Positions 1 to 4,141 are shown, counted from the first letter of the stretch. The stretch: 4,141 nt of DNA from a virus (IMGVR_UViG_2617270961_000003), one strand, 5' to 3'. Notes: generated from the letters alone by a model not told the origin. Numbers and translations: made by a program.

Positions 1-118
1 AGACGATGACGTCACTGCCCGGCTGTATGCGCGAGGTTACCGACTGCGGCCTGAGTTTTTTAAGTGACGTAAAATCGTGTTGAGGCCAACGCCCATAATG
101 CGGGCAGTTGCCCGGCAT
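1..118 (-). CDS. insB: IS1 InsB, 5' portion (partial, cut by the window edge; continues at 3746..4141 if the ends are joined)
   Basis: ATG at 118..116 followed by CCG GGC AAC (M-P-G-N), the recalled InsB N-terminus MPGNSPHYG. It is in the -1 frame relative to insA and overlaps the insA 3' end. Confidence 0.75.
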
Positions 119-312
119 CCAACGCCATTCATGGCCATATCAATGATTTTCTGGTGCGTACCGGGTTGAGAAGCGGTGTAAGTGAACTGCAGTTGCCATG
201 TTTTACGGCAGTGAGAGCAGAGATAGCGCTGATGTCCGGCGGTGCTTTTGCCGTTACGCACCACCCCGTCAGTAGCTGAACAGGAGGGACAGCTGATAGA
301 AACAGAAGCCAC
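37..312 (-). CDS. insA: IS1 InsA (transposition inhibitor / N-terminal part of the InsAB' transposase)
   Basis: 91-aa [46 protein letters not shown]... is the IS1 InsA sequence as I recall it, with a zinc-finger-like CxxC...CxxC N-terminus. Confidence 0.95.
55..63 (-). other. IS1 programmed -1 ribosomal frameshift motif (A6C) joining insA to insB'
   Basis: Window 55..63 gttttttaa is the reverse complement of TTAAAAAAC at the 3' end of insA, the known IS1 frameshift site for InsAB' production. Confidence 0.8.
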
Positions 313-344
313 TGGAGCACCTCAAAAACACCATCATACACTAA

Positions 345-367
345 ATCAGTAAGTTGGCAGCATCACC
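345..367 (-). repeat. IS1 terminal inverted repeat (IRL), 23 bp
   Basis: Window 345..367 atcagtaagttggcagcatcacc is the reverse complement of GGTGATGCTGCCAACTTACTGAT. It is an imperfect inverted match to the other terminus at 3731..3753. Confidence 0.9.
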
Positions 368-506: not shown

Positions 507-1466
507 TTAATTTACCATCAGTCTTAGAGCCAGTTCGTCCGGATAGGGATCGAAGTAATTCTGTGTAAGCAAGTAATCATTAGGATACTCACCCAGATAA
601 TGCTTCAGCAGAGTCAACGGCGCAAGAAGAGGTAATGTGCCAGAACGATAGTTAAGTATAACCTCGCTCAACTCTTTACGCTGGCGTGTACTTAAGTAGT
701 TACTAAAATACCCCTGTATATGCATCAGCACATTCGTGTGATTTTTACGTGATGCAGGTTTTCTGAGAATCGCCATCAGCTTATCACGATACACCTCAAA
801 GTATGATTCAAGGTCCGCCCACTCGTGTATTGCAGCCACAAATGGTCCCATATCTTTATAGCCTGCCTGACTATGCGCCAACAACTGAAGCTTATAACGA
901 CTATGAAAAGCTAATAACTCTCTTCTTGATAATTTCTCCTTGTAAAGGTGATTGAGCTCATGCAAAGCAAAAACTCTTTCAACAAAATTCTCACGAAGCA
1001 CTGGATCATGTAATCGCCCATCCTCTTCAACCGGTAGCCAGGAAAACTTTTCCATCAAAGTGCTCGTAAATAGTCCCACTCCATCTTTACGACCTCGATT
1101 ACCATTTTCATCATAGACACGCACGCGCTCCATGCCACAGCTGGGAGATTTAGCACAAACCACAAACCCCGATACATCCTTTAATTTGTCCATATAAGAA
1201 CGACTAAACTCTGTCATTCTCTCTGTCACATCCTCATTCTGGTCGTGGCTGAAACACATCCGTATATTTCCTTGCGTCGAGCGCACAAGACGTAGAGCAG
1301 GACGCGGAACTGGCAGCCCTATAGCCATTTCCGGACATACTGGTCTGAATGTTACCCATTCCACTAATTTGTCCATTAAAAAGTCAGTTCTTTTGTGACC
1401 ACCATCAAAACGAACAGCAGAACCGGCCAAACAACCGCTGATTCCAATCACAGGTTTTTTTATCAT
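507..1466 (-). CDS. DUF523/DUF1722 fusion protein (TudS-like thio-nucleobase desulfidase-type N-terminal domain, YbgA-like C-terminal domain)
   Basis: 319-aa ORF. The N-terminal third has DUF523/TudS hallmarks: GISGCLAG (Cys12), RPVCPEMAIGLPVPRP (Cys44) and KSPSCG (Cys104, Cys110). The C-terminal half looks like the YbgA/DUF1722-type helical domain. A strong Shine-Dalgarno (GGGGGAG) sits 5 nt upstream of the ATG at 1466. Confidence 0.8.
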   Translation of the reverse strand: MIKKPVIGISGCLAGSAVRFDGGHKRTDFLMDKLVEWVTFRPVCPEMAIGLPVPRPALRLVRSTQGNIRMCFSHDQNEDVTERMTEFSRSYMDKLKDVSGFVVCAKSPSCGMERVRVYDENGNRGRKDGVGLFTSTLMEKFSWLPVEEDGRLHDPVLRENFVERVFALHELNHLYKEKLSRRELLAFHSRYKLQLLAHSQAGYKDMGPFVAAIHEWADLESYFEVYRDKLMAILRKPASRKNHTNVLMHIQGYFSNYLSTRQRKELSEVILNYRSGTLPLLAPLTLLKHYLGEYPNDYLLTQNYFDPYPDELALRLMVN

Positions 1467-1658
1467 ATTCTCCCCCTTGACTAATTCATTAACACATAAA
1501 CTGTGTAGTGCACGGAATAAATTGCCTTTCTGGCGTCATCACTGACAATTTTTCTGTTATGGACTATTCCTAATATAGTATGGAAGTTCTTTAAGTGATC
1601 GGTCGTAATCATCTATCTTTCATACTTACTCTCAACTATCAAAAGTACAGGATTTATT

Positions 1659-2183
1659 ATGAAGTTATGGCCTGTGTTGACTGGCATTGCACTCTCTTTC
1701 ACTCTTATAGCATGTAAGGCCCCGACACCACCTAAAGGTGTGCAGCCGATTACAAATTTTGACGCCAACCGCTACCTCGGAAAATGGTATGAAATAGCTC
1801 GCCTCGAGAACCGGTTCGAACGTGGTCTGGAACAGGTCAGCGCTACTTATGGAAAACGGAACGACGGAGGGATTCGTGTACTTAACCGTGGATACGATCC
1901 AACGAAAAATAAATGGAGCGAGAGCGAAGGTAAAGCATACTTTACTGGAGATACTAAAACTGCAGCATTGAAGGTTTCGTTTTTTGGCCCCTTCTATGGT
2001 GGCTATAATGTAATCAAACTGGATGATGAGTATAAGTATGCTCTTGTCAGTGGTCCGAACAGAGAATACCTATGGATTCTGGCAAGGACCCCAACTATTC
2101 CAGATAAAGTAAAAGCAGACTATGTGCGAACCGCTCAAAAGTTGGGATTCAATGTCAATGAATTATTATGGGTTAAACAATAA
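1659..2183 (+). CDS. blc: Outer-membrane lipoprotein Blc (bacterial lipocalin)
   Basis: 174-aa ORF with a lipoprotein signal peptide and lipobox (LIAC, Cys19). Long collinear similarity to E. coli Blc as recalled (NFDAxRYLGxWYEIAR, FERGLExV, SEGKAYFTG, AALKVSFFGPFYGGYNVI, YLWIL.RTPTI), but clearly divergent from it, roughly two-thirds identity by eye. Confidence 0.9.
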   Translation: MKLWPVLTGIALSFTLIACKAPTPPKGVQPITNFDANRYLGKWYEIARLENRFERGLEQVSATYGKRNDGGIRVLNRGYDPTKNKWSESEGKAYFTGDTKTAALKVSFFGPFYGGYNVIKLDDEYKYALVSGPNREYLWILARTPTIPDKVKADYVRTAQKLGFNVNELLWVKQ

Positions 2184-2211: not shown

Positions 2212-2240
2212 AAAAAAACCAGCCTTTGGGGAGGCTGGCT
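2212..2240 (-). terminator. Rho-independent terminator for minus-strand transcription (candidate tR' of the Q-controlled late unit)
   Basis: On the minus strand: GC-rich stem CCAGCCT / AGGCTGG (2238..2232 and 2225..2219), 6-nt loop CCCCAA, then a T7 run (2218..2212). On the plus strand the hairpin has no following T-tract, so it is unidirectional. Confidence 0.55.
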
Positions 2241-2338: not shown

Positions 2339-2716
2339 TTATTTCGAACAATCAGCATCCATCTCCAATCGGAGATCCAACACCATCAGCATACCCTCCA
2401 CTACGCCCTCAGCTTTCTGAAGCATCCTGCCAACCCAACAATCAGATCGCCCATGCTTACGTGCAAGCGCCATAAAAGTCATGCCGCCGACATAATAGTC
2501 CACCAATAAATCATGCAAATCGCTGTTGTTCTTTTTCAGACGGGCCATGCACCCGCAAATGATCATCGCGTCATCGTCACAACATTGTGGGCGAGATTTT
2601 ACTTTTGAAGGAATTAATCCCTTAAAACCGGCGGCAATGGACGACCAGGTCACATCTTCATGATTATTAGCCGCCCACGCTCCCCAACGCTCAAGAACCA
2701 TCTGAATATCACGCAT
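2339..2716 (-). CDS. quuD: Phage antitermination protein Q (DLP12 QuuD-like)
   Basis: ORF-track protein contains [35 protein letters not shown]...[16 protein letters not shown] (a Cys-rich zinc-binding motif), matching the DLP12-type Q antiterminator as recalled. I place the start at the first ATG (2716..2714), which has GGAG 7 nt upstream; the track's 2731 start is a TTG and less likely. Confidence 0.8.
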
Positions 2717-2801
2717 CAACTTACTCCACAAAACTCAGACCAGAACGCCAATTACAAGCAAAAATCAACAAAACAGTATTAGTTGATTGTTATCTCTGAC
2801 T

Positions 2802-2939
2802 TCATACTCCTGCTCCTGTCAGTGTTTTGGCGTAATTCTTCAGTATTCGGTAATCGGTCAAAACAGAACCGGGGAAACGATATAAGCGCAGACGCCCCCA
2901 GCGGTGGCGAAGAAGTTCTGCCATATTAAACTCAAACAT
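2802..2939 (-). CDS. ylcG: Small ORF (45 aa) between rusA and Q, position-equivalent to DLP12 ylcG
   Basis: My own translation: [45 protein letters not shown]. Its ATG (2939..2937) overlaps the rusA stop (TGATG), and GGGG lies about 8 nt upstream. It is below the ORF-track size cutoff. The identification rests on synteny and size from memory. Confidence 0.45.
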   Translation of the reverse strand: MFEFNMAELLRHRWGRLRLYRFPGSVLTDYRILKNYAKTLTGAGV

Positions 2940-3301
2940 CATTCATTCCCCATTTCGGTGATGGTCAGTTCCAGCCTCCCACCTTTGGTAACAGGCATCT
3001 TCACAACGCGGTAATCAACGACCTGAGCATCATCCAGCCAGAAACCTGCTTTAGTGAGTGCGTCAAAAGCGGCTTTTTGCAGATTATCCAGGTCACGGCG
3101 ACGGCGATCCGGCATGTGGCACTCAATGCGGATTTTCACAGGCATAGTCAGGCCGATATCCAGCATTGCGTTTTTAATGATTCGGGCGACGTTATCGCGG
3201 TATGCCTGCCCCTCTGCGCTGACGTGCGTGCGCCCGCGATTATGGCGGTAATAGCGATTATTGCTCGGAGGCCAGGGTAATGTGATGCTGTAGGTATTCA
3301 C
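2939..3301 (-). CDS. rusA: Crossover junction endodeoxyribonuclease RusA (Holliday junction resolvase), lambdoid prophage type
   Basis: 120-aa [40 protein letters not shown]...[10 protein letters not shown], essentially identical to E. coli K-12 DLP12 RusA as recalled. The start codon in this sequence reads GTG and overlaps the upstream ybcO-frame stop (GTGA). Confidence 0.95.
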
Positions 3302-3426
3302 GCCTTAATAACCCCCTCTTTCAGCCAGATAACCTGTGTTCTCGCCATACCTTCCAGCGCGCATTCTTTTGCATATGCAGCATCGACTTGCTTGGCATGC
3401 CCTTTACCGGCAATCTTCTGTATGCG
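3298..3426 (-). pseudogene. ybcO: ybcO-like remnant: only the C-terminal ~42 codons remain open upstream of rusA
   Basis: Minus-strand frame ending at TGA (3300..3298) translates ...[40 protein letters not shown], matching the recalled YbcO C-terminus. The same frame is closed by TAG codons at 3429..3427 and 3435..3433, and no ORF of full YbcO size exists. Confidence 0.5.
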
Positions 3427-3507
3427 CTAAACCTAGATAGAATCCACTCTGTGCACATTGAAGCCCGCTCTATGCTTCCTTTCAGGTATTGAAGGGATTG
3501 AGATGGG

Positions 3508-3744
3508 CTAAGCATTATTGGCCTCCTGCATCAGGAGAAAGACAATCATGGAGGCGCGGAGAGGTCTGGTATCAAATATTGGGCTTACGCCTTTTGCATC
3601 CACACACCATTCAGTTAACTGGTCTAAGATAGAAATCCTGTATTTCTCAATAATCGGCCATGAAGCGCTCGGATCATTGCAGTAGTCAGGCAAATGATTT
3701 AATGGCTCAAAAGTTGTATCAGCATTTCCGGGTAATGACTCCAA
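3508..3744 (-). CDS. Hypothetical 78-aa ORF of unknown family; 5' end lies inside the IS1 terminal repeat (possible IS1-truncated gene or hybrid ORF)
   Basis: ORF-track frame starting at TTG 3744..3742, which is inside the IS1 inverted repeat. It is in the same frame as the ybcO-like remnant but separated from it by amber stops. I recognise no family. Coding status is uncertain. Confidence 0.25.
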
Positions 3745-3753
3745 CTTATTGAT
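3731..3753 (-). repeat. IS1 terminal inverted repeat (IRR), 23 bp
   Basis: Window 3731..3753 ggtaatgactccaacttattgat is the IS1 right-end repeat and pairs imperfectly with IRL at 345..367. Confidence 0.9.
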
Positions 3754-4141
3754 AGTGTTTTATGTTCAGATAATGCCCGATGACTTTGTCATGCAGCTCC
3801 ACCGATTTTGAGAACGACAGCGACTTCCGTCCCAGCCGTGCCAGGTGCTGCCTCAGATTCAGGTTATGCCGCTCAATTCGCTGCGTATATCGCTTGCAGA
3901 TTACGTGCAGCTTTCCCTTCAGGCGGGATTCATACAGCGGCCAGCCATCCGTCATCCATATCACCACGTCAAAGGGTGACAGCAGGCTCATAAGACGCCC
4001 CAGCGTCGCCATAGTGCGTTCACCGAATACGTGCGCAACAACCGTCTTCCGGAGCCTGTCATACGCGTAAAACAGCCAGCGCTGGCGCGATTTAGCCCCG
4101 ACATAGCCCCACTGTTCGTCCATTTCCGCGCAGACGATGAC
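3746..4141 (-). CDS. insB: IS1 InsB, 3' portion (partial, 5' end lies beyond the window edge / at 1..118)
   Basis: Track [51 protein letters not shown]...[12 protein letters not shown] matches the C-terminal ~125 aa of IS1 InsB as recalled. The frame stays open to the window end. Confidence 0.9.

Follow-up and report, generated by a model that had tools for sequence, protein, structure and literature searches.

A lambda-like prophage remnant trimmed by IS1 very probably carries rudS, a tRNA modification eraser gene, next to blc

The gene at positions 507..1466 (minus strand) of the 4,141-nt stretch of viral DNA analysed here, referred to below as the window, is very probably rudS, whose products form a characterised family of enzymes that erase tRNA modifications. 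This identification is the best joint explanation of the gene, including its likely mechanism and its context. ORF analysis of the window showed a full-length, uninterrupted reading frame with an ATG start, encoding a 319-aa TudS–DUF1722 fusion protein. A Shine-Dalgarno-like sequence, AAGGGGGA, lies at 1471..1478 on the minus strand, 4 nt 5' of the ATG. The original prediction had described a two-domain DUF523–DUF1722 protein, and the Pfam search bore this out with about 138 bits for each half. Residues 7-149 (1020..1448, minus strand) matched PF04463 (2-thiour_desulf, formerly DUF523; 138.1 bits against a cut-off of 34.7, E = 2.7e-40), an assignment to the catalytic TudS/DUF523 domain that conservation and the structural model also supported. 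Residues 192-309 (540..893, minus strand) matched PF08349 (DUF1722; 138.2 bits, cut-off 22.5, E = 1.9e-40) and were all-helical in the model.

Jamontas et al. (Nucleic Acids Res 2024, PMC11417400) gave the TudS–DUF1722 fusion the name RudS and described it as a [4Fe-4S] desulfidase converting 4-thiouridine (s4U) in tRNA to uridine. Overexpression of six RudS orthologues in E. coli lowered tRNA s4U 4.7- to 26-fold, cysteine mutants were inactive, stand-alone TudS or YbgA had no effect on tRNA s4U, and purified RudS_KT was active in vitro (PMC11417400). Sequencing pointed to uridine at position 8(9) after RudS action. From docking, molecular dynamics and mutagenesis, the catalytic part was located in the TudS domain, with RudS_KT residues Cys17/49/114, Glu51, Ser111, Ser113 and Arg60, and DUF1722 was identified as the part that binds the anticodon arm of the tRNA (PMC11417400). 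All of the published in vivo data on RudS come from overexpression. RudS_vir, the gp66 protein of Escherichia phage 1H12, was among the six orthologues assayed in vivo; Cys12, Cys44 and Cys110 are listed for it (PMC11417400). The literature has thus contained the family with its mechanism, the function of DUF1722 and one phage-borne orthologue since 2024.

The window protein was 93.1% identical to RudS_vir (H3V29_gp66) over all 319 residues; the two share their length and the Cys12/44/110 set, and none of the 22 substitutions between them falls on a catalytic or cluster residue. The copy in phage IdasGreatGrand was closer still (99.4% identity), a single residue separated the window protein from the allele of a near-complete prophage, and identity to Salmonella-type proteins of 319 aa was about 74%. 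The window protein has the domain architecture and catalytic motifs of RudS_ST (ORF319, STM1389, Salmonella LT2) and RudS_KT (Pseudomonas putida KT2440); RudS_ST is likewise 319 aa long with Cys12/44/110. Every feature of RudS that can be checked in sequence was found, namely the TudS/DUF523 domain, the C-terminal DUF1722 fusion, the three cysteines and the Glu/Ser-x-Ser/Arg residues. With matching domains and residues, the gene belongs to a known, experimentally defined family, of which a near-identical phage orthologue has been assayed. By analogy with RudS_vir in vivo and RudS_KT in vitro, the window allele would carry out Fe-S-dependent conversion of s4U to U in tRNA.

The motifs GCLAG, VCPE and SPSCG, to which the original prediction had drawn attention, are present in the protein as GC12LAG, VC44PE46 and S107-P-S109-C110-G. 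Conservation was assessed in an alignment of the window protein with 91 full-length relatives (92 sequences, down to 35% identity). The relatives were drawn from 7687 matches with E <= 1e-5 among 8000 scored candidates, and from a second protein search that gave 6593 cluster representatives with E <= 0.001. P45, E46 and R55 were invariant in this alignment, and C12, C44, S107, P108, S109, C110 and R19 were kept in at least 90% of the sequences. Cys12, Cys44 and Cys110 are the predicted cluster ligands of the catalytic domain, with Glu46, Arg55, Ser107 and Ser109 as further predicted residues. By motif offset from the cysteines and by family conservation, these last four are the counterparts of RudS_KT Glu51, Arg60, Ser111 and Ser113. 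A two-domain ORF with an intact cysteine triad is far beyond what chance would give.

An AlphaFold2 model built on the 92-sequence alignment had a mean pLDDT of 96.5 and a pTM of 0.93, with helices at residues 155-300. When the model was searched with Foldseek, the only significant solved-structure matches of the N-terminal domain were the TudS entries 6z92, 6z93, 6z96 and 6zw9 (TM 0.73-0.76 normalised to TudS, rmsd 3.0-3.6 Å, 25-27% identity). The protein was also matched to TudS 6z92 by phmmer. The same Foldseek search found no solved structural relative of the helical C-terminal half. The earlier expectation of an Fe-S-dependent, TudS-related desulfuration enzyme was therefore right in kind, the N-terminal domain of the model matching TudS structures alone. 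TudS (DUF523Vcz; 6Z92/6Z93/6Z96/6ZW9) shares with the window protein the fold of the N-terminal half, the cysteine triad and the Glu/Ser catalytic residues. TudS, however, consists of one domain (about 150-166 aa) and acts on free bases and nucleotides, whereas the window protein has longer loops and a helical DUF1722 region of about 165 residues, by which its activity would be redirected to tRNA. Because the window protein has two domains, it falls outside the definition of a stand-alone TudS.

The substrate is the point on which the original prediction, which had named thiouracil-type compounds, needs revision. A salvage enzyme of the TudS type, which would desulfurate small molecules such as free thiouracil or thiouridine-like compounds and in which DUF1722 would be an appendage without a characterised role, would be in keeping with the genuine TudS fold and full catalytic set of the N-terminal domain, and PMC10611767 reports that TudS enzymes use 2- and 4-thiouracil and s4UMP. 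Against this, the RudS fusions, including the phage one, gave no TudS-like rescue of a uracil auxotroph on thiouracils, all of the fusions lowered tRNA s4U while stand-alone TudS did not, and DUF1722 residues add to tRNA binding (PMC11417400). We therefore regard free-base salvage as very improbable and tRNA s4U as the likely substrate. The statement that DUF1722 has no established function has likewise been overtaken, as it is a tRNA-binding domain in RudS (PMC11417400).

The naming of the protein in databases follows its C-terminal half. The C-terminal 156 residues (160-315) align to nearly the whole YbgA model, and this alignment accounts for the RefSeq name 'YbgA family protein'; 'DUF523 and DUF1722 domain-containing protein' is also used in RefSeq. 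YbgA of E. coli K-12 is a stand-alone DUF1722 protein whose gene adjoins the photolyase gene phr; it has no catalytic domain, and its overexpression left tRNA s4U unchanged (PMC11417400). The window protein scored 190.8 bits against the NCBIfam YbgA equivalog NF007549, below the cut-off of 237. As it has the features of RudS and fails the YbgA equivalog, the RefSeq names are incomplete. PHROGs families 3275, 2809 and 1450 match RudS, Blc and the AraC-like protein of the complete phage module (see below) over their full length, and all three are labelled 'unknown function'. With labels such as YbgA, DUF and 'unknown function' in RefSeq and PHROGs, the protein will keep being flagged as unknown.

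The genes around rudS are those of a lambdoid phage. The blc gene, encoding an outer-membrane lipoprotein lipocalin of 174 aa, is located at 1659..2183 on the plus strand (PF08212, E = 7e-44; NCBIfam Blc, 316 bits, cut-off 267). It is separated from rudS by a divergent intergenic region at 1467..1658, and its strand is opposite to that of the phage late genes, so that it is antisense to the presumed late transcript. The antiterminator Q gene (2339..2731; PF06530, E = 2.5e-51), ylcG (2802..2942) and rusA (2939..3301; PF05866 RusA) follow on the minus strand; Q is annotated in relatives, ylcG and rusA belong to the lambdoid nin region, and a phrog_2705 match and the RefSeq annotation of relatives also support the ylcG–rusA region. 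The last gene is a ninX remnant on the minus strand (PF10765), truncated at its 5' end by the right-hand IS1; it covers 3508..3730, the ORF extending to 3744 with its first codons in IS1. Only positions 46-114 of the PF10765 profile are covered, and the full gene in prophage L001 has 342 nt. From the Q, YlcG, RusA and truncated NinX genes, together with the IS1 ends, the window is a piece of a lambda-like prophage read from right to left.

The same gene order was found in complete or nearly complete phages. A near-complete prophage of STEC309, inserted beside ybhC, carries on the late strand Q, blc (in the opposite orientation), rudS, an AraC-family gene (243 aa), holin, endolysin and spanin genes, and phages 1H12 and IdasGreatGrand have an identical order. 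The 243-aa AraC-family protein is YdeO/GadX-like, with scores under the cut-offs of those models. The window shares Q, blc and rudS with 1H12 and differs from it in having IS1 in place of the downstream module of AraC-like, holin, endolysin and spanin genes, the window prophage being defective. The pair thus occupies a lambdoid moron-module position, between Q and holin, that recurs in functional phages. PADLOC, searched for an anti-phage defence role, gave no match for RudS, Blc or the AraC-like protein. The stx genes of Stx phages are moron cargo in the corresponding slot of the lambdoid genome, between Q/tR' and the lysis cassette. Other examples of lambdoid moron cargo 3' of Q are blc and bor, both on the list of Mathieu et al. 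2020 (PMC6969025).

The original prediction knew of no description of this genomic context, and on the novelty of the context it was wrong. 1H12 and related phages were isolated by Mathieu et al. 2020 (PMC6969025), who already named blc among the morons, with a presence in over 50% of infant-gut lambda phages, and a phage RudS has been tested (PMC11417400). The adjacent rudS is not discussed by Mathieu et al. 2020, and the word 'YbgA' is absent from their text (PMC6969025). The supplementary material searched for the RudS paper makes no mention of lipocalin, Blc, 1H12, MerR or prophage (PMC11417400), and no discussion of blc and rudS as a linked pair was found in the literature searched. The phage context of blc-rudS is therefore already described, save, in that literature, for the linkage of the pair as such.

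Both ends of the window are parts of IS1 on the minus strand. The left part, on the insA side with InsA domains, covers 1..367 and ends 139 bp 3' of the rudS stop codon; its terminal sequence GGTGATGCTGCC (reverse complement) ends at 367. The right part, on the insB side, covers 3731..4141 and contains DDE_Tnp_IS1. The two pieces are co-oriented, and 3731..4141 joined to 11..367 gives exactly 768 bp, one full IS1, while window bases 1-10 repeat bases 4132-4141. With one 768-bp IS1, a 3363-bp segment and a 10-nt end overlap, the window is a circular permutation. Its possible origins are a repeat-bounded contig that was joined to itself and, with less probability, a circle formed by IS1–IS1 recombination. 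The two partial copies may thus represent one IS1 in a circle or a collapsed repeat.

The description of an IS1-bracketed, prophage-linked segment is accurate as to the IS1 pieces at both ends and the prophage genes between them; the bracketing itself is incidental, as the module exists without IS1. As an alternative, IS1 could be the mover of blc-rudS, with the pair as cargo of a composite transposon or of a circular translocatable unit; this would be suggested by two co-oriented IS1 parts flanking the segment and by the recombination-circle shape of the window (one 768-bp IS1, 3363 bp of other sequence and ends that overlap by 10 nt). However, IS1 is absent at these sites in 1H12, IdasGreatGrand and the STEC309 prophage, where the gene order at the phage position is identical, and the pair is present in about 1150 genomes, almost always on the chromosome. 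The inner IS1 flanks in the window contain no matching duplication, and a self-closing, repeat-bounded contig is a common assembly artefact. The marks of a composite transposon, an outer target-site duplication and the occurrence of the unit at unrelated sites, were not found, the outer flanks lying outside the window.

In other strains, the IS1 junctions occur singly at the edges of prophage deletions, by ybhB or near int–ybhC. HeN100 has the right junction (within ninX) alone, and its IS1 abuts the int-proximal prophage end by ybhC. In CAVP888, an IS1 just 3' of rudS replaces the AraC-like gene and the later late genes, by ybhB, a junction that may correspond to the left one of the window. 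As such junctions are single and at deletion edges elsewhere, the IS1 copies are deletion scars and not the vehicle of the pair, and transport by IS1 is highly unlikely. The window derives from an E. coli prophage at the lambda attachment site that was cut down by IS1-associated deletions on both sides to ninX'-rusA-ylcG-Q-blc-rudS. The remnant between the IS1 pieces measures about 3.4 kb, and the AraC-like and lysis genes are gone.

To trace the origin of the pair, chromosomal orthologues from Citrobacter, Enterobacter, Klebsiella, Serratia, Pectobacterium and related genera were compared; they were 66-76% identical to the window RudS. In 62 species-representative rudS loci, examined with 6-kb flanks, blc was located divergently, 5' of rudS, in 42. 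The arrangement of 38 loci was divergent blc, then a MerR/MlrA-like gene, a gap of about 600 bp and rudS; in Enterobacter this gap is the gene of a small secreted protein. Divergent blc without a MerR gene was found in 3 loci, and blc and a MerR gene before a long operon in 1. The remaining loci contained the long operon with no blc seen in the 6-kb flank (15 loci, 2 of them with a MerR gene), a MerR gene alone (2 loci), or neither blc nor a MerR gene (3 loci). The long operon comprises SDR, amine oxidase, DUF1365, cyclopropane-fatty-acid-synthase-like, DUF2878, chalcone-isomerase-like and DUF3833 genes, with rudS last. The 174-175-aa and DUF3833 genes before rudS in this operon were considered as possible lipocalin relatives and rejected (BLASTP against the window Blc, E > 2 and E 15), and Pfam gave only a weak chalcone-isomerase-like hint for the genes before rudS. 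The pairing with a lipocalin noted in the original prediction was confirmed by these loci, and a lack of recurrent linkage, which would have counted against that prediction, was looked for and not found.

The Serratia blc that adjoins chromosomal rudS encodes a protein 78% identical to the window Blc, in line with the 74% identity for RudS. These matching values indicate that blc and rudS were captured together. The pair was taken jointly from a chromosomal Enterobacterales locus composed of blc and, divergently, a MerR gene and rudS. The RudS_ST and RudS_KT genes are also chromosomal and lie by MerR-family (light-responsive) regulators, and MerR-type regulators by rudS have been linked to light induction (PMC11417400). 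Chromosomal rudS is preceded by a conserved promoter-like element with the palindrome CTTACACAAA-N8-TTTGTGTAAG. This element does not align with the phage intergenic region 1467..1658. In contrast to the chromosomal genes, the phage copy has neither regulator nor palindrome and so has lost the regulator and the probable operator.

The position of rudS in the phage suggests how it may be expressed. A terminator-like hairpin with a T7 run is located at 2217..2240 (minus strand), just 3' of Q and just past the blc stop codon, in the position of lambda tR'. In the intact prophage L001, the late strand from Q to holin held no terminator-like site other than the hairpin after Q, which places rudS and the AraC-like gene within the presumed Q-antiterminated late transcript. 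Scans of the region 5' of rudS gave weak promoter matches at background level and no convincing sigma-70 promoter. Judging from this geometry, rudS is probably transcribed by Q-modified polymerase together with the late genes, possibly with a promoter of its own in addition.

A dead prophage remnant could carry an intact-looking gene that is unexpressed or physiologically irrelevant. In favour of such a functionless passenger, the remnant is short, at about 3.4 kb, its downstream AraC-like and lysis genes have been deleted, and the scans 5' of rudS found no strong promoter. RudS_vir is also among the weaker enzymes, with desulfidation below that of RudS_ST at comparable soluble protein (PMC11417400), and disrupted copies exist elsewhere, rudS being cut by IS1 in MINF_9A and reduced to a 49-codon stump by IS3 in E. 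coli B. However, the ORF in the window is full length with all catalytic residues and is one residue away from the allele of the near-complete prophage, and Q and the sequence just 3' of Q still lie 5' of rudS. Between the diverged alleles of the window and phage 1H12, dN/dS was 0.11 for rudS and 0.06 for blc, which points to purifying selection on both genes while they were phage-borne. The pair is, moreover, kept in independently eroded remnants that have lost late or early genes. We therefore consider a functionless passenger unlikely.

The blc-rudS pair is widespread in E. coli. Of 5426 complete E. coli genomes, 1153 contained the 1.9-kb blc-rudS stretch, and 1064 (about 20%) contained at least 80% of the rudS CDS at 90% identity or more, almost always on the chromosome. 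A search of plasmids gave four matches, all classed as non-mobilizable; two were chromosome-sized (about 4.8 and 4.9 Mb) and two were large (280 kb and 730 kb). The rudS gene is thus essentially never present on true plasmids. E. coli has been said to lack RudS (PMC11417400), and a 2026 review says the same. This statement holds for K-12 and for B, but it fails for the species as a whole.

The mechanism proposed for the window enzyme maps the biochemistry of the family onto the window sequence. Cys12, Cys44 and Cys110 would hold a [4Fe-4S] cluster, the fourth iron of which would bind the s4U sulfur at position 8 (or 9) of the tRNA. Glu46, Ser107, Ser109 and Arg55 would then support a non-redox, hydrolytic desulfuration that yields uridine. 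The helical DUF1722 domain is predicted to dock on the anticodon arm of the tRNA, which would make the whole tRNA the substrate rather than a free base. In a lysogen or on induction, RudS may lower the s4U content of host tRNA. Less s4U may in turn mean less UVA-induced s4U8–C13 cross-linking, growth delay and stringent response.

Taken together, these points allow a tentative reading of the phage module, which we consider possible rather than probable. The phage may have taken a light-stress pair, blc-rudS, stripped it of its MerR-type regulator and operator, and put it behind Q/tR', with the result that erasure of s4U8 would be tied to prophage induction or be constitutive in lysogens. Since UV sets off prophage induction by way of the SOS response, removal of the UVA-sensitive s4U8 mark would, if this is true, protect the translation of late phage proteins in sunlight, or RudS would alter the near-UV response of the lysogen. 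About one fifth of E. coli strains would then differ from K-12 in tRNA s4U, UVA growth delay and stringent response. The presence of prophage rudS in about 20% of genomes could confound comparisons of s4U levels and near-UV responses between strains. Phage rudS also offers a natural system in which the role of a tRNA eraser for a temperate phage can be tested.

The first ten bases of the window (1-10) were the same sequence as its last ten (4132-4141), and the IS1 parts at its two ends (1..367 and 3731..4141) summed to exactly one 768-bp IS1. Therefore, the window is a circular permutation made up of IS1 plus a 3363-bp segment, and represents either a contig that closed on itself when a repeat was collapsed or a genuine circle formed by IS1 recombination. 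In some strains, the lipocalin gene blc was interrupted by inserted DNA that contained corA and was flanked by IS1 (L079, E. coli NCTC9080, 7295-11069), the two IS1A copies pointing in opposite directions. This interruption shows that IS1 has repeatedly targeted the blc/rudS prophage region.

In intact phages, rudS was followed by a gene encoding a 243-aa AraC-family protein, located at 11060-11791 in L001 (the intact prophage of E. coli STEC309) and at 6279-7010 in L002. This gene was missing from the window, where IS1 (1..367) took its place. The AraC-family protein most resembled YdeO and GadX, two regulators of acid resistance, with scores far under the cut-offs for both, and belonged to phrog_1450, a PHROG of unknown function. 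At the other end of the segment, the stretch from rusA to ninX (window 3302-3507) contained a 64-aa ORF on the minus strand (window 3321..3515) that gave no family match. Relatives carried a truncated DUF1364/ybcO pseudogene at this position, and thus the nin region had already decayed here.

On the chromosomes of many Enterobacterales, a conserved promoter-like element lay immediately upstream of rudS (L025:5940-5990; also L058, L062, L075 and others). It contained the palindrome CTTACACAAA-N8-TTTGTGTAAG, which is probably the operator of the adjoining MerR/MlrA-like regulator. The palindrome-bearing element was absent from the phage rudS copies. In another chromosomal arrangement, found in L004, L010, L013 and 13 further loci from Citrobacter, Klebsiella, Pectobacterium and others, a long conserved operon ended in rudS, which was preceded, in order, by SDR, amine oxidase, DUF1365, cyclopropane-fatty-acid-synthase-like, DUF2878, chalcone-isomerase-like (175 aa) and DUF3833 genes.

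In Salmonella (L007-L009, protein P0031), a 74% identical rudS stood alone, with integrase fragments on one side and a DUF1367 phage gene on the other, an arrangement that looks like a second, independent prophage-remnant setting for rudS. Its neighbours were dbpA and a 311-aa PF01171 (ATP_bind_3) gene, the latter taken to be ttcA, encoding tRNA 2-thiocytidine synthase. E. coli phage genes were also found on two short contigs binned in a 'Candidatus Nanosynbacter' Saccharibacteria MAG (JARKOR01). On one contig (L072), identity was 99-100% for Q and blc and 99% over the first 98 RudS residues; on the other (L067), it was 94% over RudS residues 80-319 and 99% for the AraC-like gene. The presence of these phage genes in this MAG is almost certainly binning contamination.

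In the E. coli B lineage (L081, B-ZidR), rudS was cut by IS3 and reduced to a 49-codon stump (4001-4147) adjoined by intact blc and Q. The same prophage region carried another tRNA-modification gene, queH (7648-8313), encoding epoxyqueuosine reductase. BL21 derives from the E. coli B lineage. BL21 was the host in the published RudS assays (PMC11417400).

E. coli has been described as lacking RudS (PMC11417400; 2026 review PMC13602947). When complete E. coli genomes were counted at a criterion of at least 80% of the gene at at least 90% identity, rudS was present in prophages of 1064 out of 5426. The prophage-borne rudS of these strains contradicts the published claim that E. coli is without RudS.
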